NCBI GenBank assembly: GCA_014905635.1
Contig: JABVCE010000003.1
Location: 62,001-126,000, forward strand
Direction of reading: 5' to 3'
Length of the DNA: 64,000 bases
Origin: Scenedesmus sp. PABB004
Lineage: Eukaryota
Both the position numbers and the translations under genes were made by a program. The notes beneath the pieces were generated by a model that worked only from the letters and a program-made list of their open reading frames with translations, made no database searches and was not told the origin of the DNA. Position 1 is the stretch's first letter, and each line of letters begins with the position of its first letter. Below, in pieces: positions 6,596 to 63,827 of this stretch.

Positions 6596-9500
6596 ATGCT
6601 TGGGCGAAGCGTGGCGCGGCTGCGGCTGCTGCAACAGGCGGCTCCGGCAGCAGCAGCGGCGGCCGCACCGGCCGTGGAGCGCCTGGCGCAGGTGGGGCGC
6701 GCGTTGGGGCGGCCGGGCGACGCTCCATGCGACGGCCGGCCATGCGCCGGCCGCCCAACCCGCCGGCCCGCCGCCGCAGGCGCTGCACACCGCGGCCGGC
6801 GGCGGCGGCGACCCGCCGCCCGCTGCGGGGCCGCTCCGCCAGCCGGCCGGGCCCGGCGGGCCGCATGAGCAGCAGGTGGAGCTCCAGCAGCAGCTGGAGC
6901 GGCCACACCAGCCGCCGCAGCAGCCGGGGCGCGTGGCGCCGCGGCAGCACTACCACGCCGCGGCCGCCGCACCGCAGCGCGCGCGCCCCACGCTGCAGCA
7001 GCCGGCGGCGCACTGGCAGCAGCAGCAGGCGCAGCACCAGCAGCCAGAGCGGCAGCCGCCAAGCCCAGCCGCCGAGCGTCTCAGCAGCAGCAGCAGCGGC
7101 GCCGGCGGCGGCGCCGGCGACGCGGGAGGCGCCGGCGTGGCCGGCGGCAGTCCGCTGGCCGGCCCGCCCGGCGCACCCGGCGCCGCGCAAGCGGCGGCGG
7201 ACGCGGCGGACGTGTTTGAGCTGACCAGCTTCCAGCAGCAGTACGCGCAGACGCTGGAGCAGCTGCGCCTGGGCTACACCAAGAACCTCTCGCAGCTGGC
7301 AGAGGTGTTCGACCCGGCGGCGCTGCTGGCAGGTGCGTGCGCGCGCGCCTGCGCGGCCCCGCAGCGGCGGCAGCTGCCGCCTCAGCAGCAGCAGCGCCAG
7401 CGGCGGCAGCCCACGCGAGCAGCAGTCGCGCCGCGCCACTCACGAGCACCCGCCCCCGTCGCCTGCCCCCGCCGCCCAGCGCCCGACAAGGGCGGCGCGC
7501 TGCTGGAGGCGCTGCTGTTTGGCGCGGCCAAGCTGGGCGACCTGCAGCTGCTGCGCCAGCTGCTGCGCTGCCTGGCGGCGGCGGGGCTGCCGCTCAGCGC
7601 GACGGGCCACTGCGCAGTGCTGCACGGCCTCGCGGCGGCGGGGCGCAGCGCAGAGGCGCTGCAGTGGCTGCAGCAGCAGGTGCCGCCGGCGCAGCTCGGG
7701 GGGCAGGTGCTGCGCGCGCTGGTGCAGCCGCTGCTGGCGCGGGGTGACGTGGCGGCGGCGGAGCAGGCCCTCGCGTGGGCGGGCGACGGCGCGCTGGCGG
7801 GCGAGGGCGGCGGCCAGGCGCTGGCCTGCCTGCGGCTGCAGGCCGCCGGCGCCAAGGCCAGCCTGTCGGCGGTGCAGGCAGAGTGGGCTCGCATCCAGCG
7901 CGAGCGGCAGCAGCAGCAGCCGCTGGGCGTGCACGTGTGGGCGAGCTATGCGAGCGCGCTGGCGCGCGCGGGGCGGCGCGACCCCGAGTCCGTGGCGCAG
8001 CTGATGGCGGGCGCCATGGAGCAGCTGGCGCACACCTACCACGCCACGGCCTGGGAGCGCTGGGCGGCCAAGGTGGCGGCACGCCAGCAGCAGCAGCAGC
8101 AGCCGCAGCAGCAGCAGCAGCAGCAGCCGCAGCAGCAGCAGCAGCGACCGCCCAGCGCCGACGGCGGCGAGCCCTGGTGGCAGCCCGCGCGGGCGCGTGC
8201 CGCTGCGGCGTGGGCGCGCGCGTGCGAGCAGCTGGGGTCGGGGCAGGCGGTGCCGTGGTCGGCGCTCGACCCCGCCGCGGTGCTGCCCCAGGAGGTGGCC
8301 ATGGCGCTGCAGCGCGAGGAGCGCGAGCTCATGCGCCGCGCCGCCGACGCCGCGCTGCACGTGGCGGCGAGCGTGCAGGACGGCGCCGCCCTGGACACGC
8401 TGCTCAAGCGCGGCTCGCTGCTCAAGGTCTGGCCCCAGGCCTGGGGCTTTGACGCGCTCTTCAGCGCCGCCCTGCAGGGCACGCCCGAGCAGCTGGAGGT
8501 GGGGCCGGCTGCCCGGCGGGCAGCCGGCTGCCGGCTGGCGGCGCGCCGCCGCTCGCCGCCCACCGCGCCGCGCGCCCCCTCCCTCCCCGCCCACAGGAGC
8601 TGCTCGCCGAGGCGATGGGCTGGGGCGTCGCGCCGACGCTGTCGCACTTTGAGCACCTGGGCGAGGCGTACGCGCTGCACCGCGACGCGGCGGGCGCCGA
8701 GGCGACGCTCCAGCGCGCCGCGGCGGCGGGGCACGTGCCGCTGCTGCGCACCTTCAACCGCCTGCTGCACGGCGTCGCGCTCAGCGGCGACCTCGACGCG
8801 GCAGCGCGCGTGTACACGCGCCTGCGGCTGCAGGGCTTGGCGCCGGACCAGCAGACCATGCGCAGCCTGTTCAAATGCGTCCGGCTCTACGCGAGCCGCG
8901 TGCGCATCACCACCGCGCGCGCCATGGCGCAGGCCAAGCCCGGCGACAGGTGCGCCGGTGGTGGTGGCCCCGACTGCGCCCGCGGGCGGCCGGGCGGGCG
9001 GGCGGCGGCACCCGCCGCCGCGCCGCCGCGCCGCCGCGCCGCCGCGCAGTGCCGCAGCGCCACTCGCCGCGCCGCCGCGCCGCCGCCGCTGACCCCCCCC
9101 CCCCTCGGCCCGCCCCGCCCCGCGCCGTCCGCGCCGCGCAGCGAGGCCATCGCGGCGCTGCTGTCGCGCCGCGCGGGCCTGTTTGCGCGCGCCTACACCC
9201 AGCTCGCGGCGTGGCAGGGCGAGCTCGTGGCGGTGGGGCTGAAGCACAGCCCCGCGAGCCTGCACCAGCTCCTCGCGGCGCTCGAGCGCCTCGGCGCGGT
9301 GCACGACTGCATGCAGCTCGCGGCGCTGCACGAGGAGCTGCGCCCCGGCAGCTTCGAGGCGCACCGCTTTGCGCTGCAGGCCGCGAGCCGGCAGCGCACG
9401 CCGCGCGGCGCGGGCGAGGCCGCGTCGCTCGCGGCGCGCGTGGCGGCGGGCCCGGGCGGCCTGCGGCGCCACGACTACGCGGGGCTGATCGCGTCCAGCT

Positions 9501-10749: not shown

Positions 10750-12737
10750 ATGGAGCAGCATAGGGCGCTGGAGCCGGCGCTAGCGAGCGAGCACGACCCC
10801 GCGGACCTCACCTGGATTGAGTTCTGGCACGAGAGCGAGTTCAAGCTGGAGAGCGCCCTCCCGCACGCCCCAGGGGCGCCTGGGGGGATGGACCACGCCC
10901 TGCAAGCCCCGGAGCACGCCTTCTTCGCCGGCCACGCGCCCGGACACCCGCCGCACCACGGCGCCCACCCCAGCGGGGCGCTTGGCCCGGGCGCCGACGC
11001 CTTCGCGCTAGGGCTGCTGTCAGTCATCGATCACCACCACTCCGGCCCCTACACCGTGAGGCGCCGCCGCGCGCCGCGCCGCGCCGCGCGCGACGATCAC
11101 GCGGCCGATGAGAGGCGCGCGACGCCCCACCGGCCGCGCCCGCGCAGGCGCAGGACGTGTCCTTCCTGAGCAGCAGCACGGGGCAGGCGGGGCACATGCA
11201 GTCGTACTCCTTCTCCGACCAGCAGCACATGGGCGGCATGCACCCCGCCCCCATGATCTACCCCTCCGCCGCCTACCAGATGCCGGGCGCCAAGTCCGGC
11301 AGCCTCGCGGACGGTGAGCTGCGCGCAGGCGCGCGCGGCCGCTGCCGCGCGCGCGCGCGCCGCGCAGCTCACGCCGCGCCGGCTCGCCGCCCGCGCCGCA
11401 GTGCCCACGGGCAAGACGCGGCTGCGCTGGACGCCGGAGCTGCACAGCAGCTTTGTGGCGGCGGTGAACCAGCTGGGCGGGCCGGAGAAGGCGACGCCAA
11501 AGGGCATCCTCAAGCTCATGGACATGCCGCAGCTGACCATCTTCCACATCAAGAGCCACCTGCAGAAGTACCGCCTCAACATCCGCCTGCCCGGCGACGG
11601 CGGCACCGCGTCCGGCAGCACCGGCGCGCCGCAGCAGCCCGCGGGCGCGAGCAGCGGCTCGCTCGGCCCGGAGCCCGCGCCCACGGCCGGGACGGCCGGC
11701 GCGGACAGCGCCGCAGCGCCCGCGCCTGCGAGCGAGCCGGGGGCAGCTGCAGCGGCCGCAGCCGCGGCGGCTGCGGCGGCTGCGACGGCTGCAGCGCCGG
11801 CAGCCAGCGGCGGCGCCACAACGGCGGGCGGCTGCTCGTCGGCGACCGCCATCGCGCTGCAGCACGGCGGCAGCACACCGCTGGCGCTGGCGCCGTCGCC
11901 GCAGGAGCAGCTGCTGCAGCAGCAGCAGCAGCAGCAGCAGCAGCTACCGCCGCAGCCGGCGAGCGAAGCGCCCCCGCCGGAGGGCGAGGACGACGACGGC
12001 GTGCAGCAGATGCGGCACGCGACGCGGCGCGACCTGGAGCGCGCGCTATTGCAGCAGATGGAGCTGCAGAAGAAGCTGCACGAGCAGCTCGAGGTGCGCG
12101 CGCAATGCGCGCGCGCGCGCGCGCGCGCATGTGTGTGTGGGGTGAGGGGGCGGGGGGGGGGGGGGGCTGCACCAGCAGCGTGGCCAGCCGCGGCGCGCCC
12201 CCGTGCGCCGCCTGGGCCCGCGCGCGCGCGCGGCTCACGCCCTCCCGCGTGCCCGCCCCGCCCCGCCCCGCCGCGCAGACGCAGCGCCAGCTGCAGCGCA
12301 GCCTGGAGGTCCACCAGCGCTACATCCACAGCCTCATGGAGCAGGAGGGCCTGGCCCACAAGATCCCGGAGCTGTCCGCCGCGCTCGGCGGGGCCACGGC
12401 GGGCAGCTTTGTCAGCGAGGCCGTGCCCGCGCAGCCGCTCACGTCTGGCGTGCAGCAGCTGCAGCAGCAGCAGCAGCAGCTGCTGCCGGGTGGCGACAGC
12501 GGCGGGCAGCTGCAGCAGACGCAGCTGGCGGAGCCGCAGCAGCAGCTGGGGCAGCCGCCAGGCCGGCCGCCGGCGCCCGATGCCGGCGCGACGGCGGGCC
12601 TGCCGAGCGGCGGCGGCTGTGACGTGGATGTGGACCTGCTGATCTCGGACCCGGACGCCGCTGGCGAGGAGGCCGACGCCGACCCACCCAAGGCGCCGCC
12701 GGGCAAGCGCCAGCGCATGCAGGCGCCCGGCGCCTAG
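10750..12737 (+). CDS. GARP/G2-like MYB-CC transcription factor (PHR1/PSR1-like)
   Basis: [55 protein letters not shown] (SHLQKY MYB), plus coiled-coil [33 protein letters not shown] (LHEQLE motif). Confidence 0.93.
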
Positions 12738-30686: not shown

Positions 30687-33600
30687 TCAGGACTGCGTGG
30701 GGGCGCCGGCGGCGGGCGCGAGCGCGTCAGCAGGCCGGCGGCGGCTGCGGCGGCTGCCCCGCCTCCCAGCCCCCCCCGCCACCCAGCCCCCACCCCGCCC
30801 GCGCCCCGCTGGATGTGCGGGCTCACCATGCCCGGCATCCCCGGCACGCGCTGCTGCGCCTGGCTGAGCAGCTGGCGCAGCTGCGCCTGCTGGTCCTGCC
30901 CGCCCATGGGGAAGCCGCCCTGCTGCTGCGGCGACGGCGGCGGCGGCGCGTCGGCGAGGGGGGCATGCGCGCGGCGGGCAGGCGGGCACCGCGAGCGGCA
31001 GGCGGCCGCGCGAGCGCGCGGCTGCGCACCTGCTGGGGCATCCCGGGCCGCGGCGCGCCGGGCATGCCCGCAAAGCCCCCCGCGCCGCCGCCCTGCATGA
31101 ACTGCTGCTGCCCCGGCATGCCGGGCCGGCCGGCGAGGTTGGCCTGCAGCGCCGCCTGGTTCTGCGCGAGCTGCTGCGCGAGCATAAACTGCTGCTGCTG
31201 CTGCTGGCGCATCTGCTGCTGCGCCTGCGCCTGCTGCGCCTGCTGTGCCTGCTGCGCCTGCTGCTGCAGCAGGTACTGGAGGTTGGCCTGCTGCTGCGCC
31301 GGCGGCCGCGCGCCGCCCATGAGCTGCTGCTGCGCCTGCGCCTGCTGGCCAAACGCGGCCACCGCCGCGGCGCGCTGCTGCTGCTGCTGCTGCTGGAGCT
31401 GCTGCATCTGCTGCTGCTGCATCTGGTGCTGTTGCTGCTGCGCGTGCTGCTGCTGTGCAATCGCCTGGGCCTGCTGCATCAGGCCGGCGAGGTTCATCTG
31501 CTGCTGCTGCTGCTGCTGCTGCTGGGCCTGCTGCTGCATGCCCTGCGGCCGCGGCATGCCCGCCTGCGCCTGCTGCTGCTTGGCCTGGCCCAGCAGCACG
31601 GCCAGGGGGTTGGGCTGCATGCCGGGCGCGGAGGTGGGGAAGCCGCCGCTCACGGGCGGCCGCGCGCCCGCCTGGCCGGCGGGGCCGTTGGCGTAGGGCC
31701 GCACGCCGCCGGCGCCGCCCGGCGCGCCCGCGGCGGCCGACGCCAGCAGCTGCGCCAGCGGGTTGGGCGCGCCGGCGCCGCCGCCGGGCAGGCCCTTCAG
31801 CCCCGGCGCGCCGACCTGGCCGCCCGCCGCCGCCGCGGCCGCCATGGCCGCCGAGAGCGCGTTGGGCGCGCCCGGCGGCGCGCCGGGCTGCGCGCCGCCG
31901 CCAAAGCCCGTGCCAGGCGGCACGAGCGGCGCGGGCGCGCCGCCGCTCGACTTGGGCCCGCTGTCCCAGACGCCGAGGCCGGTGCCCCAGATGCCCGCGA
32001 GCGCGGAGGGCACCTTGGCGCCGCCGGCGCCCGCGCCGGCGCCGCCCAGCACCGAGTCAAAGCCGGCGCCGAGCGCGGGCGACAGCCCGCGCGCCTCCGG
32101 GCCCGCGGCGCCGCCGGGCTTTGCCGACGGCCCGCCGTCGCCGGCGTCGTCGAGCCCCAGCTCCAGCAGGCCCGCCAGCTTGGCCAGGTCCTCGTCGCCC
32201 TCGCCGCCCACGCCGCTGCCGCCGCGCTCGAGCCCCGCGCCGCCGCCCGGCGCGCGCAGCCCCGGCGCGCCGGGCGGCGGCGGCGGGGGCGGCGGCGGCG
32301 GCGGCGGCCAAAGCCCATGCCCGGCGGCGGCATCGGCGGCGGCGGGGGCTGGCCGCTGCCGGGGCCGGCGTGCTGCTGCGGGGCGGCCGGCTTCTTGAGG
32401 AAGGCCATGAGCTTCTTGGAGGCCTCGCTGTCCACGCGGCTCTCGCCCGGCGGCGCGCCCATGCCTGCGCGGCGCGGCGCGGGGCAGGCGCGCGGCGGCG
32501 TGGGCGCGCGGCGGGAGCGTGCGGCGCGCCCCGCGCGGCGGCGCTCACCTGGCGGCGGGCCCATGCCCGGCGGCGGGCGCTGCATGCCCGGCGGCGGCGG
32601 CGGCGGCTGGCCCATGTGGTGCTCCAGCTCGGCCATGGTCATGACGCCCTTGCCGCCGCCGCCGGCGCCGGGCTCGTGCGGCAGGCCGGGGCTGCTGCCG
32701 TGCGAGCCGCCCGCTGCGGCGGCCTTGAACTGGTCAAACGTGAGCTTGCGCCCCACGACCGACGGGTCGCCGCCCGACGGCGTGCCGGGCTGCCCGCGGC
32801 CGCCATCGCCGGGGGCGGGCGGGCCGTCGAAGAAGCCGCGCCCGCCGGCGGAGCCCTGGCGGCTGGGCGGCTTGCGCCCGCGCGGGCCGCCCTCGTCGTC
32901 GCTGTCGCTGCGCAGGAAGGCCAGGTCGTCCTCCTCCTTGCCCTGCTGCGAGGGGGCGGGGTGGGAGGAGAGAGGGATGGGGGTTCAGGAGGGCGGTGAG
33001 GGAGCGGGGCGGCCGCGGCGGGCGGCGAGCGCGCCGGTGCGCAACGCACACAGCCGCCGCCGCGCCGCTGCGGCGCCGCCGGGTCGCCGCGGCGGGCGCG
33101 CGGCGCGCACCTTGCTGGCCTGCTGCGCGCGCCACTGCGCCTGCATCTCCTGGCGCTCGCGCTCGATGTCCTTGGCCGTCATCGGCCCCGGCCGCCCCGT
33201 CGGCGCGGGCGGCAGCAGCGTGCGCGACGCGGTCACGCCCTCGCCGGCGGCCTGGCCGTCGCTCATCCACGCCGGGTCGCGCTCCCAGTGGCTGCCGCCG
33301 CCGCCGCCGCCGTAGCCGCCGCCGCCGCCGCCGCCCTCGCGCCGGCCCCACTCGCGGCCGCCGCCGCCGCCGCCGCCGCCGCCGCTGCCGCCGCCGCCCC
33401 ACTTGTCTTCATGGCCCATGCCCGGCGGCGGGCGGCGGGGCATGTCGTCCATGCTGCCCCGCGCGCTGCCCCAGCCCGCGGCGCCGCGCGGCCGCTCCTC
33501 CTCGCCCAGCGCCGGTCGGGCGGGCCCGGCGGCCCCCGGCCGCCCGCCGCGCCGCTCGGCCCCATGCCGCGCCAGCCGCGCTCCTCCGCGGTCGACGGGC

Positions 33601-53648: not shown

Positions 53649-56105
53649 ATGCTGCGGGCGGCGGCGGCGGCGGCCCTGCGGCACGCCGCAGGCGCAGCCG
53701 CCCTGGGCCGCGCGGCGCCGGCCGGCGGGGGAGCGCAGGTGCGTCTGCGCGCACGCTGCCGCCGCCGCTGGCGGGCGTGGCGGGCGCGGCGGGCCGCCGA
53801 CGCGCGCCGCCGGCGCGCGCCCGCCGCCCGCCCGCAGGCGTGCTCGAGCCCGCGGCGGCGCGCAGCAGCAGCTGGCGCCTGCGGCAGCAACTCGCGCCGG
53901 TGACGACGCGGCCGCTGCGGCGCGGGCCGGCGGCCCCGCCGCACCACCACCACGGCGCGGCCGGCGGCGGCGACGCCGCGGCGTCGCCCGGGGCCGACGC
54001 GCGCGCGGCCGCGCTGCGCACCGCGCTGGAGGGCGCGGGGCTGAGCTTCTCGGCGATGGTCGCCGCGCTGCGCTACAGCGAGCGCCACCCGCTGCGCGCC
54101 GAGGCGACGTCGCGCGCCGTGACCGCGCTGCAGGCCCACTTTGGTCGCGCGACGGCGAGCGACATGGTGACGCTCGCGCCGAGCCTGCTCGCGCGCTCGC
54201 CGGAGCGCATGATCGCCCACTTTGAGGGCCTCACCGCGGTGCTGGGCGCGGGGCGGGCCTTCGCGCTCGAGGTGCTGCGCCGCGCGCCCGACCTGCTGCA
54301 GCACAAGCCCGAGCTCGTGGGCGCCAAGCTCGAGGCGCTGCAGGCCATGTTTGCGGTGCGCCGTGGCGCCCGCCCGCGCGCACGCGCGGCCGCGGCGCCG
54401 CGCAGGCGCCGGCGCCGGCGCGGCGGTGCGCGGCCGACGCCGGCGTCGGCGCGCCCCCGCGCCGCCGCAGGTGCCGCGCGGCGCGGTGCTGCGGCTGGTG
54501 CGCAAGGCGCCGATGCTGCTCAAGTGCCAGACGGCCAAGCTGCGCCCCCACCTCGACTTCCTCGCCGCCGCGGGCGGCCTCGACGCGGCGCGCTGCTTCC
54601 GCGTCTACCTCAGCTGGCCAGTGCTCGCGACGACGACGCTGGAGCTGGTCAAGCAGCGGTGCGCGCGGCGCGGCGGCGGCGGCGCGCGCGCCCGCGCCGG
54701 CCCGCCCGGCGCCGCGCCGGGCGCCGCGCCTGCGGCTGGCCGCGCGCGCCCCACGCGCCGCGCGCCGTCGCCGGCGGCGCCGCAGCTACCTGGGCCTGCA
54801 GGCGCTGCTGGGCGCAAGCCCCGACGAGATGCGGCGCATCGTGCGCGTGTGGCCAAACATGCTCGGCCGCGACCCGCTGCAGCTGGAGGCCAACATCGCA
54901 ACGCTCGCCGAGCGCGTGGGCGTGAGCAAGGTGCGCCGCCGCCCCTGCGGCCCGCGCGCCGCCGCCGGCGGCTGCGCTCGACGCGCCCGCCCGCCCGCCT
55001 GCCTGCCGCGCCGCGCGCCGCGCCGCCGCGGCTGTGCAGGAGGCCATGGTCGGCATGGTCCGCCGCGAGCCGGGTCTGCTGAGCTGGAGCACCTCCACGC
55101 TCGTGCACCGCGTCGTGGGCGTGAGCCAGGTGCTCAAGCTGCCGCCGGAGCTCAGCCTCACGCTGCTCACGTACCACCGCCCGCTGCTGTCCAACGTCGA
55201 CACGCTGCCGCGCAAGCTGGAGGTGCTGCAGCGCGTGCTCGGCCTCCCGGGTGCGCCGCCGCCGCCGCCGCCGCCGCCGTCGCCGCCGCCGGCACGCAGC
55301 GGGCCACCGCTGCCGCAGCGCGCCCGCCTGACGCCGCGCGACGCCGCGCGACGCCGCCGTGGCGCGGGCGCAGAGGCGGAGCTCTACCCCCTCGTCCACC
55401 GCCACCTAACTATGCTGCGCTTCCCGGTCGCCGCGGTGGAGGGCAAGCTGGCGTGCGTGGCCGCGCTGTCGCGCCTGCACGCGCCCTGGGCGGCAGAGTG
55501 GGCCGCCGCAAACGTGCCGACGCGCGTGCGCGCCATCCAGGCGGGCTGGTCGTGCCACTGGCGGCTCGTGTTCCTGCTGCAGAGCGGGCAGCAGGGCAGC
55601 TGCCTGCTGGGCACCGCGCTGCGCCTCAACCACGCGCGCTTCGCCCAGCTCTACCCAGGGTTCAAGCCCTGGCTCAACCGGTAAACCCCACGGGGCGGGG
55701 CGCGCCGGCCCCGCGTGCGAGCGCGTGCCCGCGCGCCGCTGGCCGACCTTGCGCCGCCGCCCACCCTCCCGCGCACCGCGCCGCGCAGGTACAACGAGGC
55801 GGTGACGGCGCAGGACGTCCCCGTGCTCGCGTCCGTCGCTGCGGCGGCGGCGGCGGCGGCGGCCCCGCCCAGCGGCGGGCGGGGCCGCGGCCGCAGCCGC
55901 GGCGCGGCGGGTGCGGAGCTGCTGCAGCCGCTGGAGGGGCCCGCCATCTTCACGCCCGTGCTGCTCGACGCGAGCCTGGGCAAGGCGCTGCACAGCGGCA
56001 GCCTCTACGTGCGGCACAAGGCCGCCGCGCTGTCAAACCAGGCCGGCGCGGCCGGGGTGTCCGGACCCGAGCAGCTGGGAGCGGACGGCGCAGGCGGCAG
56101 CGGAG

Positions 56106-57304: not shown

Positions 57305-58276
57305 TCACAGCCCGTGGTGCCAGGGCTTGCCCTTGCGCTGCGGGCCGCCGTCAGCGCCCTTGCGCTGCGGCATGGGCAGGCCGCGCAGGCGCGCGTAGAC
57401 CTGGCGCGTGGAGAGCATCTCGACGACCAGCACGCGCCCCGTCTTGCTGCTGCCGCGCAGGAGCGTGAGGTTGTTGTGCCGCAGCGAGAGGCACTTGGCC
57501 ATGAGCACCATGACCTCAGCGTTGGCGCCCTCGTGCGACGCGCTGCCCGTGATGGCCACGCGCACCGCGTCGGCGCTGATCTTGCCGACCGCGCTGTGCG
57601 GCTGCCGGTCCTCCAGCTCCAGCGTGACCTCGACGTTGCCGCTCTCGCCGACGCGGATGCACGGCGGCACCGGGATCTTGTCGCCAGCGCCTGCGGCGGC
57701 GGCGGCGGCGGTGCGCGTGGGCCGGCGGCGGCGGCGAGGGCGGCGCGCGGGCGGCGCGGCAGCAGCGCGTTGCCGGGCGCGGCGGCGGCGGCCGCGCGCG
57801 CCTGCTTCGCGGTCGTAGCTCGTGACCGCGCGGTCCATGATGTAGACCAGGCCGTCGCGCGCGTCGCACGTGTAGGCCACGGGCAGGCTGCCTACGTTGA
57901 GGCGGCGCTGCCGCTCGACGCGGCCGTCGCTGCGGCGGAGCAGCTTGGTGCCGCCGTCGGTCGTGAGCAGCTGCAGCGCGTGCTCGCCCGTGTCCAGGAT
58001 GCGCGCGTTGTCGGTGCGCCGCCGCGGCAGCGTGTCGATGTCCACATCTGCGGCGGCACGGCGCGGGCGCGGGCGCGTGGGCGTCGCGCGCCGGCGGCGC
58101 CGCCGCCGCTGCTCGGCCGCCGCCGCCGCTGCTCCGCGCCGCGCCGCCGCGCGGCGCCGCGCACCTGTCGTGAAGGCGTGCTTGCCCGAGTACTTGCAGT
58201 AGTACACGAACAGGTGCGCGCCCTCGGTGCGCGGGGCGTCGTTGCTGGTGTAGATGAGGGTCGTGCGCTTCGGCAT
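57305..58276 (-). CDS. STEEP1/CXorf56-like domain fused to DUF167 (UPF0235/YggU-like), plant At5g63440-type
   Basis: MPKRTTLIYTSNDA...LFVYYCKYSGKHAFTT|DVDIDTLPRRRTDNARILD...KLLRRSDGRVERQ. C-domain PVPPCI...ISADAVRVAI...GANAEV...LTLLRGSSKTGRVLVVE. Confidence 0.85.
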   Translation of the reverse strand: MPKRTTLIYTSNDAPRTEGAHLFVYYCKYSGKHAFTTGARRRAAARRGAAAAAAEQRRRRRRRATPTRPRPRRAAADVDIDTLPRRRTDNARILDTGEHALQLLTTDGGTKLLRRSDGRVERQRRLNVGSLPVAYTCDARDGLVYIMDRAVTSYDREAGARGRRRRARQRAAAAPPARRPRRRRRPTRTAAAAAAGAGDKIPVPPCIRVGESGNVEVTLELEDRQPHSAVGKISADAVRVAITGSASHEGANAEVMVLMAKCLSLRHNNLTLLRGSSKTGRVLVVEMLSTRQVYARLRGLPMPQRKGADGGPQRKGKPWHHGL

Positions 58277-60445: not shown

Positions 60446-62943
60446 ATGCAGCTGCGCGCGCGCGTGGGGTCGGCTGGCGCGGCGAGTTCGCACCCGGGGA
60501 CGTCCATGAGCTCGGCGCCGCGGCTGGCGCGATTCATGCAGCGCCGCTGCGCTGGCGCCGCTGCTGTCGGAGCCGCGGCGCTGAGCAGGCCGCCGCGCCT
60601 GCTGCCGCCCGCCGGGAGGCCCCTGACGATCGCGCGGGCTCAGGCCGACGGCGGCGCCGAGCCTGAAGGCGGGGTGCGGGCCCGCGCGACGCGCTGCGCT
60701 GCCGGCAGCCAGCGCGCGACGTGCTCGCAGCACGCGCGCCGAGCCCGCGCCGCGCCGCACGCAGGCGCCGCTGGGCAGCAGGCTCGGCGCCATCGCTGCG
60801 GCGGCGGCCGTGTTTCTCGGCGGCTACGGCGCGGGGCTGGCCTCGTCCGACCTGGTCGCCGACGTGAGGACGGCGGAGGCGCACCGCGTGGAGCTCGCGG
60901 CGGCGGCGCCGCGCGCGCCCGTGCGGCCGGTGTCGCTGGCGCTGCCGGACCAGGTGCGCGGCGCGGCGGCGCGTGCGCACACGTGCCGCGCGGCGGCGGC
61001 GGCGGCGGCGGCGGCGGCCGACCGCGCGCGCCGCGCGCCCGCGCGGGCCCCGCAGGCGGCGAGCGAGCAGGTGTCGGCGGCGGCGCAGGCGGGGCTGTCC
61101 CCGGACGAGCTGGCCACGATCCGCGTCTTCCAGGCCAACACGCCGAGCGTGGTCAACATCACCAACATCCGCGCGATGCAGGCGCGGCGCACGCGCGCGG
61201 CGCCCCGCGCTGCCTGCGTTGCCCCCCCCCCCTTCCCCGCCTCACGTCCCCGCCTCACGCACACGCCCGCGGCACCGCGTCTTTGTCGCGCGCGCAGAGC
61301 TACTACACCATGGACATCGAAAAGATCCCCGCTGGCACGGGCAGCGGCTTCGTGTGGGACAAGCAGGGTGCGGCGGGCCGGCGCGCGCCCACGCGCCGCC
61401 CCGCGCCCCACGCGCCGCGCCGCGCCGCGCCATGCCGCGGCCGGCGACCCACGCCGCCCGGCCCGGCCGCCGCGCCGCCGCCGCTGCCTCCCGTCAGGGC
61501 ACGTGATCACCAACTTCCACGTGAGCCCACGTGGGAGGGGCGGGGGCGCTCCGCGCGCGCGCCCCGCTTCTGCAGCCCGCGCGGCGGCGCCCACGCCCGC
61601 GCCCCGCGACTGCGCGCGACTGCGCCGCGGCGCCGCGCCGCCGCCGCGCCCTGGCAGGTGATCAAGGGCGCGAACGAGGTCAAGGTCACGCTGCTGGACC
61701 AGTCGAGCTACGACGCGCGCGTGGTGGGCGCCGACGCGGACAAGGACATCGCGGTGCTGCAGCTCACCGGCATGCCGCCCGAGCGGCTCGCCGCGCTGCA
61801 GCCCGTCACGGTCGGGGCGTCGTCGGGGCTGCAGGTCGGGCAGAAGGTGTACGCGATCGGTGCGCGCGCGCCGCCGCGCCCCGCGCCGCCCGCGCGCCCG
61901 GGCCGACGCGAGGGGCGGCGGCCCCCGACACCGCGCCGCGCGCTGCGCCGCGTGCAGGCAATCCCTTTGGCCTGGACCACACGCTGACGCAGGGCATCAT
62001 CAGCGGCCTGGGGCGGGAGCTGAACACGGGGCTGTTCCCCATCAAAAACGTCATCCAGACCGACGCCGCGATCAACCCGGGCAACTCCGGCGGCGTGCTG
62101 CTCGACAGCAAGGGGCGCCTCATCGGCATCAACACCGCCATCGCAGACCCAACGGGTGCGTGTGTGCATGTGTGTGCGCGCGCGCGCGGGCGGGGGCGTG
62201 CTGGCTGACCCTGGGCGCGCCCGCGGCGGCGGCGGCTCCAGGCGGGCCGAGCTGCCACGCCGCCGCCGCGCCGCCCGCGCGCGCGCGCGCAGGCAAGGGC
62301 GCGAGCAGCGGCGTGGGGTTTGCGATCCCCATCGACGCGGTGCGCGGCCTGGTGGGCCAGATCCTGCGGTACGGCCGCGTCATGCGGCCCAGCCTCGGCG
62401 TCGTCATCGCGCCGCCCGCGGCGCTGCAGCGCGTCGGCGAGCGCGGCGTGCTGGTGCTCGACGTGAGCCGCGGCGGCGCGGCGGCGGCGCACGGGGGCGG
62501 GCGGGGGCGGGAGCGCGCCGCCGCGCCGCCGCGCCGGCGCCCACGCCCGCCCGCACCGCACGGCGGCGCCCGCGCGCGCGCCGCGCAGGTGCAGCCCGGC
62601 TCGCCGGCGGCGCGCGCGGGGCTGCGCCCGACCAGCCGCGCGCCCGGCGGCGACCTGGTGCTGGGCGACATCATCACCGCCATCGACGGCAAGCCGGTGC
62701 GGCGCCGCCGGCGCGGCGGCGGCGGCGCGCGCGCGCGCGCGGGGCGCTGCGGGCCGGCCGCCGGGCGCGCGGCCGCGGCTCACGCGCCGCGCCGCGCAGG
62801 TCGGCGGCGTGGCGGAGCTGCTGGAGCAGCTGGACGCGAAGCGCGTCGGGGACAAGGTGGTGGTCGAGGTCACGCGGGGCCGGGCGCACCTCAGCTTCAC
62901 GGTCACGCTGGCGGACCGCGTGCTCGGCAGCGGCGCCGAGTGA
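60446..62943 (+). CDS. DEG1: Deg/HtrA serine protease with PDZ domain, DEG1-like (thylakoid lumen)
   Basis: [39 protein letters not shown] (His), DKDIAVL (Asp), [14 protein letters not shown] (Ser), [13 protein letters not shown]...[12 protein letters not shown]. Start uncertain. Confidence 0.92.
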
Positions 62944-63317
62944 CGCGGCGCCGGCGCAGGGCGTGCGAGGGGCGGGGCGCGCCGCCGCGCGCAGCGCCCC
63001 TGCTGCCTGCCTGTCATCATGCCACCTTGCCATCACGCCATCATGCGAGCGAGAGCGAGTGCGTCCGCCGCCGCGGCGGGGGGGGGGGGGGGGGGGGGGG
63101 GCGTGTTCAGTAGCGGCGGCTGCCCGGCCGGCTGGAGTTGCCGGCTGCGCGGGGCAGCCGGTGTGTGCGTGTGAGAATGCGCGGCGGCGCCGCGCGTTTG
63201 GCGGCCGCGCAGCGGCAGTTTTGGGCATCATCGCGGGGCGGCGTGCGCGGCGGGGCCGGCAGCAATAAGCAGCGCGGGCCCCAGCGCCTGCAGGCGCGCC
63301 TGTAACCTCGCCAGGGC

Positions 63318-63328
63318 AAAAGGCAAAA
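63318..63328 (-). terminator. RNA polymerase III terminator (two T4 runs) of the permuted tRNA
   Basis: TTTTGCCTTTT, 9 nt downstream of the 5' half on the minus strand. Confidence 0.7.
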
Positions 63329-63336
63329 GCACCAGG

Positions 63337-63337
<1 letters not shown>

Positions 63338-63367
<30 letters not shown>

Positions 63368-63488
63368 TCACCGCCAACCACCGGGGTGGTGTGCGTATAG
63401 TCTGATTGCACAGACAGATTCAATGAGCTCACACGGTAGAATCACGCGGTGAGCAGGATTTGAACCTGCGCGGGAACTCCCAATTGAT
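63338..63488 (-). tRNA. tRNA-Ser(AGA): Circularly permuted tRNA-Ser(AGA): 3' half (63488-63445) upstream of 5' half (63374-63338), 70-nt spacer
   Basis: 5' half GCGGTGA TG GCC GAGCGGTTAA GGC G ATTGA CT AGA A. 3' half A TCAAT TGGGAGTTCCCGC GCAGG TTCAAAT CCTGC TCACCGC G. Acceptor (GCGGTGA/TCACCGC), anticodon (ATTGA/TCAAT), D and T stems pair perfectly. Long variable arm and G73 fit Ser. Confidence 0.93.
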
Positions 63489-63530
63489 CGCATGCCGGTG
63501 CATGGGTGCGTCCGAAATCATCGACTTAAA

Positions 63531-63537
63531 TTATATA
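63531..63537 (-). promoter_or_regulatory. TATA box upstream of the permuted tRNA gene
   Basis: TATATAA (minus strand GCGTATATAATTTAAG), ~43 nt upstream of the 3' half. It is one of very few AT-rich tracts in the window. Confidence 0.65.
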
Positions 63538-63827
63538 CGCTTGATGTCTAATGTTTTTGGAGCCGTTTTTCTCCCCGACCGCGGCGATTTCGGCCCGGGA
63601 AAAACGCCCAGTCACATCAGGGTCCATCGATCTTTCACCTCAGCCCGGGCGAAAAACGAACTCAAACAAAAAAGCGCACACGTCAGACCCACCCCTCCAC
63701 CCGCGCGTGCGCGCGGCCGGCCGGCCCGCGCGCGCCAGGCGCGCCCGCCCACGTGCCTCCAGCACCACCCGGCTGCTGCCGCCGGTGGACAGCGCGCCGG
63801 GGCTGCAGCTGCGCACCCTCAGCGGCA

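Follow-up and report, generated by a model that had tools for sequence, protein, structure and literature searches.

Can a stretch of algal DNA in which the 3' half of a tRNA precedes its 5' half be the gene of a working tRNA, and, if so, how would such a gene be transcribed, matured and relied upon by its host? This question is raised by a locus on the minus strand near one end of a 64-kb window, the window being the whole stretch of DNA analyzed here. Judged by its sequence, the feature is a type II (junction 37/38) circularly permuted nuclear tRNA-Ser(AGA) gene of a chlorophycean host. That it is a genuine and active gene is considered probable, and with good confidence, its activity being read from its anatomy.

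A reading of the sequence from 63200 to 63700 gives the order of parts on the minus strand, from 63537 down to 63318, as TATA box, leader, tRNA 3' half, spacer, tRNA 5' half, trailer and two T4 runs. The TATA box, TATATAA (63531-63537), is a putative upstream promoter for TFIIIB and Pol III and stops 42 nt short of the 3' half. The leader (63489-63507), whose 5' end is placed provisionally about 30 nt downstream of the start of the TATA box, contains a helix strand GCACCGG (63501-63495) followed by CATG (63494-63491) and then by CG (63490-63489), which directly precedes the predicted 3' splice site. The 3' half (63445-63488; 44 nt, positions 38-76) comprises the 3' strand of the anticodon stem, a long variable arm, the T-arm, the 3' acceptor strand and the discriminator G, and its T-arm includes a B box (63466-63456) that matches the consensus exactly. 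After a 70-nt spacer, or intervening sequence (63375-63444), comes the 5' half (63338-63374; 37 nt, positions 1-37), with the 5' acceptor strand, a D-arm that includes the A box (63367-63357), the 5' strand of the anticodon stem and the loop nucleotides C32 U33 A34 G35 A36 A37. Both halves were delimited with ARAGORN on the joined sequence. The trailer (63329-63337) consists of TC and the helix strand CTGGTGC (63335-63329), and directly after it lies a putative Pol III terminator (63318-63328) made up of T4 runs at 63328-63325 and 63321-63318. The tRNA unit as a whole forms an island of 51% GC inside a window of 79% GC, and the TATA box sits within a 40-nt stretch of 28% GC.

When 63374-63338 is joined in silico to 63488-63445, ARAGORN reports a tRNA-Ser(aga) of 81 nt whose variable arm is long. 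This is the outcome that a preliminary description of the locus had predicted for the join; every coordinate given there for the halves proved correct, and the cloverleaf that it called perfect has 23 of 23 stem pairs in Watson-Crick form with no G-U pair. The joined sequence carries U8, A14, G18G19, U33, A37, G53-T54-T55-C56 and A58, ends in a discriminator G and does not encode CCA. G73 and A34 are hallmarks of eukaryotic cytosolic tRNA-Ser(AGA). Comparison with two conventional genes for Ser(AGA) from metagenome loci gives 71/81 and 68/81 identical positions, against 54/81 for a Leu control. The joined halves are thus, in their predicted form, a canonical eukaryote-type cytosolic Ser(AGA) tRNA of class II in which the A- and B-box consensus is present. 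The 3' half lies upstream of the 5' half on one strand, and joining the two completes the cloverleaf, which is what defines a permuted tRNA gene.

In its native order the gene escapes standard annotation, as had been anticipated. ARAGORN calls no gene at the locus, even with introns allowed, and Rfam gives no match there at gathering scores; in E-value mode, Rfam recovers the T-arm alone, at 14.4 bits, with positions 46-63 of the tRNA model on 63470-63453. Across the whole window ARAGORN makes one dubious Ala call, an Ala(cgc) at 11078-11153 (-) that was rejected as spurious, being 84% GC and lacking the TTCRA consensus of the T-loop. Three calls made in intron mode, at 6792-8561 (-), 30858-31677 (+) and 57772-58118 (+), were likewise rejected, with supposed introns of 258-1677 nt. 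These four other calls in the window look like GC-driven false positives. A second exact match to the B box (55659-55669) was also set aside, since the exon around it looks coding and terminates with a GT donor.

The most mundane way of producing a T-arm followed by a D-arm is to place two conventional genes side by side, so that the last part of one and the first part of its neighbor are mistaken for a single permuted gene. Such look-alikes do occur. A scan of public metagenome contigs for a T-arm, 29-89 nt and then a D-arm returned 30 loci; for 29 of these ARAGORN places the D-arm within a conventional tRNA, which makes them tandem conventional genes, and the thirtieth (L016) is permuted. 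The layout is therefore rare, and the test separates it from its common look-alike. At the present locus neither arm is covered by a conventional gene in the window, no 5'-half-like sequence lies upstream and no 3'-half-like sequence lies downstream, and the two pieces have acceptor strands that complement each other exactly across the spacer. Two adjacent genes are accordingly a hardly credible account of it.

Controls within the window bear on the same point. The two-arm pattern of T-arm and D-arm matches once in the window, and none of 100 shuffles contains any match. In a generic scan for permuted genes, a fully complementary 5' acceptor strand followed by T8 was required within 400 nt of the 3' acceptor strand; on both strands of the 64-kb window, the sole occurrence of a T-arm and 3' acceptor strand followed by such a partner is this locus. 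The D-arm has no second copy in the window, its 19-mer being unique at up to three mismatches, and no second T-arm was found in the 64 kb at up to three mismatches. A search of the flanks and the spacer for decayed remnants of the outer halves found none, with alignment scores at the level of shuffled sequence (the observed scores were reached by 143, 53, 164 and 179 of 200 shuffles each). The absence of remnants from flanks and spacer indicates that the locus is neither a slice of a tandem array nor a fresh duplication.

The permuted metagenome locus, L016 (1481-1577, +), lies on a contig of 66% GC. Neither of its arms is in a conventional gene, and the join gives an 82-nt Ser(aga) of type II from a 3' half of 45 nt, an intervening sequence of 15 nt and a 5' half of 37 nt. 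A T4 run is found 5 nt after its 5' half and a T6 run 20 nt before its 3' half, and position 28:42 is a C.T mismatch. Its leader, trailer and spacer show no similarity to those of the window gene, and it may come from a prasinophyte. The acceptor stem of the window gene is present in none of the 30 metagenome loci, and no orthologue was found among them. In viral contigs, the T-arm and D-arm pattern gave one locus (L001), again of tandem conventional genes, and a 29-nt stretch of the 5' half had no match. As a separate observation, in each of L001 (1050-1130, -), L013 and L025 a tRNA-Leu(taa) is preceded by a tRNA-like sequence of class II, with D- and T-arm consensus, that ARAGORN leaves uncalled; the setting in all three is a viral or phage-like tRNA cluster.

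The signals that surround the two halves are those of one transcription unit. The motif TATAWAW occurs a single time on both strands of the 64-kb window, as the TATATAA upstream of the 3' half, and none of 100 shuffles matches. Between this box and the trailer, leader and spacer included, there is no T4 run, and of the 20 runs of at least four T on the minus strand of the window, two directly follow the trailer. At the level of sequence, the locus thus combines an upstream promoter-like element, a terminal T stretch and an intervening sequence free of signals, and the intact layout of a Pol III unit that had been proposed for it appears sound. One detail counts against an active gene, in that T4 would be a short terminator for Pol III. 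As had also been pointed out, the B box comes ahead of the A box. With the boxes in reversed order, TFIIIC would be unable to bind in the usual way, and TATA- and TFIIIB-driven transcription by Pol III is proposed instead, following an earlier suggestion for permuted genes (PMC3978253). With the lone TATA box in 64 kb directly preceding it, the gene lends itself unusually well to testing Pol III transcription that is TATA-driven and TFIIIC-independent. Further upstream, at a distance of 60-140 nt from the TATA box, three T5-T6 runs are clustered at 63600-63673 (-) in a second patch richer in AT (50% GC). This cluster, in which Rfam found no match, could stop read-through from an upstream minus-strand gene before the tRNA promoter.

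The same signals weigh on the idea of a split tRNA, in which the halves would be transcribed apart and joined in trans, as in Nanoarchaeum, with no circle formed. Apart from the 70 nt between the halves, nothing specific favors it. The 5' half has no TATA-like motif ahead of it and the 3' half no T4 run behind it, and the complementary stretches lie at the outer ends of the unit, whereas trans-splicing would need them at the inner ends. In the passages of the 2014 review drawn on here, split tRNAs are described as known only in archaea (PMC3978253), and for the present locus this origin is highly improbable.

Whether the RNA of a permuted gene could be processed depends on the ends of the precursor. 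The leader strand GCACCGG and the trailer strand CTGGTGC form 7 bp, one of them G-U, and this helix, already noticed in the preliminary description, is kept by ViennaRNA in minimum-energy folds both when the RNA folds freely and when it is constrained to the cloverleaf. A helix of at least 7 bp in the same register was found at 3.4% of 20,000 random places in the window and in 2.5% of 20,000 shuffles; it is therefore modestly unusual and, alone, weak evidence. Inside it, the central helix of CTAG against CATG allows two of four pairs (C32-G63491 and G35-C63494), with U33.U and A34.A unpaired, and is relaxed just as had been described. In the canonical BHB register the 3' bulge would consist of C, G and A38 (3 nt) and the 5' bulge of A36, A37, U and C (4 nt, not 3). 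The minimum-energy fold from ViennaRNA adopts another inner register without the C32:G(-3) pair. The eukaryotic splicing endonuclease makes use of an anticodon-intron pair, in which position 32 pairs with the third base upstream of the bulged 3' splice site. C32 (63343) is indeed complementary to G 63491, and a CG|A bulge is possible, but ViennaRNA does not choose this pairing; the pair once proposed between C32 and the third-last leader base thus holds as complementarity and is missing from the predicted minimum-energy fold. Overall, the junction would be modeled as a relaxed BHB whose outer helix is solid. The permuted cases accepted in the review's treatment of the subject include relaxed and "no H" forms (PMC3978253).

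The position of the cut can be approached through the joins themselves. Joins at 36/37, 37/38 and 38/39 each give an 81-nt Ser(aga), so that the junction is ambiguous by sequence. The 37/38 join is the only one to yield A37 A38 (loop CTAGAAA), a feature shared with the conventional Ser(AGA) genes of metagenome loci L019 and L030, while the 36/37 and 38/39 joins give G37 or U38. We infer that the cut falls exactly at 37/38, the canonical site at which the break had originally been placed, although the neighboring joins fold as well.

An imperfect junction might instead belong to a silent relic, that is, to the permuted leftover of a rearranged or duplicated intron-containing Ser(AGA) gene that is no longer transcribed, with conventional copies doing the work. 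The two of four pairs in the central BHB helix and the non-canonical predicted inner fold speak for such a remnant. Decay would be expected of it, yet all 23 Watson-Crick pairs and the conserved nucleotides are intact, and the window's lone TATA box, the T4-free interior and the terminal T4 runs have all been kept. Moreover, the absence of outer-half remnants means that the rearrangement was not recent. A relic is thus unlikely, and an active permuted gene remains the preferred reading.

The surroundings of the unit are orderly. On the plus strand lies a gene for a Deg/HtrA-type serine protease with Trypsin_2 and PDZ domains (60771-63305; Pfam and tblastn), which is context and lies outside the tRNA unit. 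Its aligned exons extend over 60771-62931 and its stop lies near 62941, and the protease gene (+) and the tRNA unit (-) are arranged tail to tail. Of the five TGTAA motifs in the window, one falls at 63301-63305 (+), some 360 nt past the Deg stop and 13 nt from the tRNA terminator; it is taken here as the poly(A) signal used by green algae, and the Pol II and Pol III units would then have nearly adjoining ends. About 240 nt away from the tRNA unit, 23 consecutive G (63079-63101, +) occupy part of what is presumed to be the 3' UTR of the protease gene, a run that could be real or a feature of assembly or sequencing.

This run marks sequence that is hard to assemble, and it lends some weight to the possibility of an assembly artefact, in which the halves of a conventional or tandem intron-containing gene would have been misordered. 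A misjoin would not create the fit that is observed, with a TATA box upstream, a leader complementary to the trailer across 151 nt and a terminator directly after it. Neither arm has another copy in the 64 kb, and the 3' end of the neighboring gene adjoins the terminator in an orderly way. An artefact is therefore very unlikely.

The identity of the host was approached through the composition and the genes of the window. The window is 78.9% GC with no N, every 2-kb bin lying between 75 and 84%, and GC3 is 0.94 in 867 aligned codons; a codon-position GC filter that was tried on the ORFs proved too crude for defining genes. Among Sphaeropleales, the 72.4% GC of Mychonastes homosphaera has been given as the maximum (PMC7354681), a value that the window exceeds, and its composition is extreme for a eukaryotic nuclear genome. 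By Pfam, the window holds eukaryotic genes for a protein kinase, an ATG4-type peptidase C54, a biotin-protein ligase and the Deg-type protease. For the biotin-protein ligase ORF, the best named matches (30-40% identity) come from Raphidocelis, Dunaliella, Volvox and Chlamydomonas. By tblastn, the closest proteins to the Deg protease are those of Scenedesmus sp. and Tetradesmus obliquus; the alignment divides into six exons, and in one of these the identity is 95.5% over 67 aa. Both of the proteins searched have their best named relatives in Chlorophyceae, and the host, to judge from them, is chlorophycean (Sphaeropleales-like), in line with what its DNA had first suggested. The best protein matches are 39-54% identical overall, and the alga therefore seems to be unsampled in the protein database.

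How a tRNA would be obtained from such a gene can be outlined by analogy with Cyanidioschyzon and the prasinophytes, from which we infer every step of the maturation. Pol III would be recruited through the upstream TATA box and would start some 18-20 nt before the 3' half, at about 63507, reading through the 3' half, the 70-nt spacer, the 5' half and the trailer and stopping at the T4 runs to leave a transcript of about 183 nt. In this transcript the cloverleaf would form across the spacer, and the 7-bp helix of leader and trailer would present a relaxed BHB-like structure at the anticodon loop. The tRNA splicing endonuclease would then make two cuts, one following A37 and one preceding A38, and these two nucleotides would be joined by tRNA ligase, producing a circle of 151 nt. 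Excision of the 70-nt spacer by RNase P and tRNase Z, with CCA added afterwards, would give the mature tRNA of 81 nt plus CCA.

The need for this tRNA can be gauged from codon usage. The Ser codons among the 867 aligned codons are AGC (24), TCG (11), TCC (4) and AGT (1), with no TCT and no TCA; UCC is thus in use, as four of 40 Ser codons. Eukaryotes read UCC through the inosine at position 34 (I34) of tRNA-Ser(AGA). It is tempting, if speculative, to regard the locus as the sole Ser(AGA) gene of a chlorophycean alga that would depend on maturation through a circular RNA to read UCU and UCC. In the same tentative vein, permuted genes may persist in the Chlorophyceae, although Chlamydomonas, the one genome of that class reportedly screened, has none, and may be a general, under-annotated feature across the Chlorophyta, and the recurrence of permuted Ser(AGA) genes in Micromonas, the Bigelowiella nucleomorph, L016 and this alga may perhaps reflect an old shared state as opposed to repeated invention.

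Permuted tRNA genes as a kind have reportedly been known since 2007, when Soma and colleagues defined them. Table 1 of a 2014 review lists 34 such genes from C. merolae, four prasinophytes, the nucleomorph of B. natans and the crenarchaeon T. pendens, and the accompanying passages state that Chlamydomonas reinhardtii has none (PMC3978253). Further cases are reported from prasinoviruses (PMC3673656) and, since 2025, from Auxenochlorella UTEX 250-A of the Trebouxiophyceae, where the relevant passage relates that they were found because tRNAscan-SE gave an incomplete set (PMC12636532). The preliminary description had named Cyanidioschyzon, prasinophytes, a nucleomorph and Thermofilum, a list that is right as far as it goes and omits Auxenochlorella. 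The relevant passages of a 2026 review name only O. tauri, C. merolae and B. natans among eukaryotes (PMC13578239), and the part of PlantRNA 2.0 drawn on here annotates permuted genes for C. merolae only. Searches of titles and abstracts in the openly accessible literature found no report of a permuted tRNA gene in Chlorophyceae, which suggests that the gene belongs to a known kind that is seen here for the first time in this class, as far as that literature shows. A clean Sphaeropleales-like example widens the range of such genes to a third large class of green algae. Standard annotation does not see permuted genes, so that a genome in which they occur seems to be short of essential tRNAs, and low tRNA counts in such genomes suggest the need for a search that is aware of permutation. 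For Mychonastes homosphaera, 46 nuclear tRNAs are given in the text of the genome report and 64 in its table, and the supplement holds plastid tRNAs only (PMC7354681).

The closest known relatives in form are the prasinophyte genes of Ostreococcus and Micromonas, and above all the permuted Ser(AGA) of Micromonas pusilla, a type II gene with a 64-bp intervening sequence (PMC3978253, Table 1, citing Maruyama et al., 2010). The two share the isoacceptor, the 37/38 junction, which the review's section on green algae gives as the commonest there (PMC3978253), the order of the parts and a place in the nuclear genome of a green alga, and the intervening sequence is long in both (70 nt here). The host here is chlorophycean and the DNA 79% GC, and the likeness to M. 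pusilla is one of published description. The sharp TATATAA also differs from the "ambiguous AT-rich region" that the same section describes for green algae (PMC3978253).

A further comparison is with the permuted genes of Cyanidioschyzon merolae (Soma et al., 2007, 2013). Proven permuted genes are characterized in the review's account by a TATA-like element no more than 50 bp upstream, a downstream T stretch and a signal-free intervening sequence of 1-74 bp (PMC3978253). The present locus agrees with this anatomy in every point, and in the 37/38 junction of green algae as well, and the first two of these, together with the freedom of the intervening sequence from signals, are the points of likeness to C. 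merolae. The proposed route, from a circle through RNase P and tRNase Z to CCA addition, is also the same. C. merolae is a red alga, in which junctions are described at four positions and some genes have introns in addition; its expression and circles have been demonstrated experimentally, whereas the present gene is known from its sequence. The Auxenochlorella genes share a core chlorophyte host and a GC-rich nuclear genome (PMC12636532) and differ in class, Trebouxiophyceae as opposed to Chlorophyceae, and in the isoacceptor of the example given there, Pro(UGG). The nucleomorph of Bigelowiella natans has permuted Ser(AGA) and Ser(CGA) genes, according to the entries of the 2014 review, and a type II Ser(AGA) is therefore held in common (PMC3978253); the intervening sequence there is listed as 5 bp, and the nucleomorph genome is a reduced one.

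Ultimately, the permuted gene may be set beside the ordinary nuclear tRNA genes that carry an intron at 37/38. The splice position is the same, as presumably are the endonuclease and the ligase, and the leader and trailer correspond to the two ends of a 37/38 intron. What differs is that the order of the exons is inverted and boxes A and B are reversed, and because of this inversion splicing would circularize the RNA instead of removing a loop from it.
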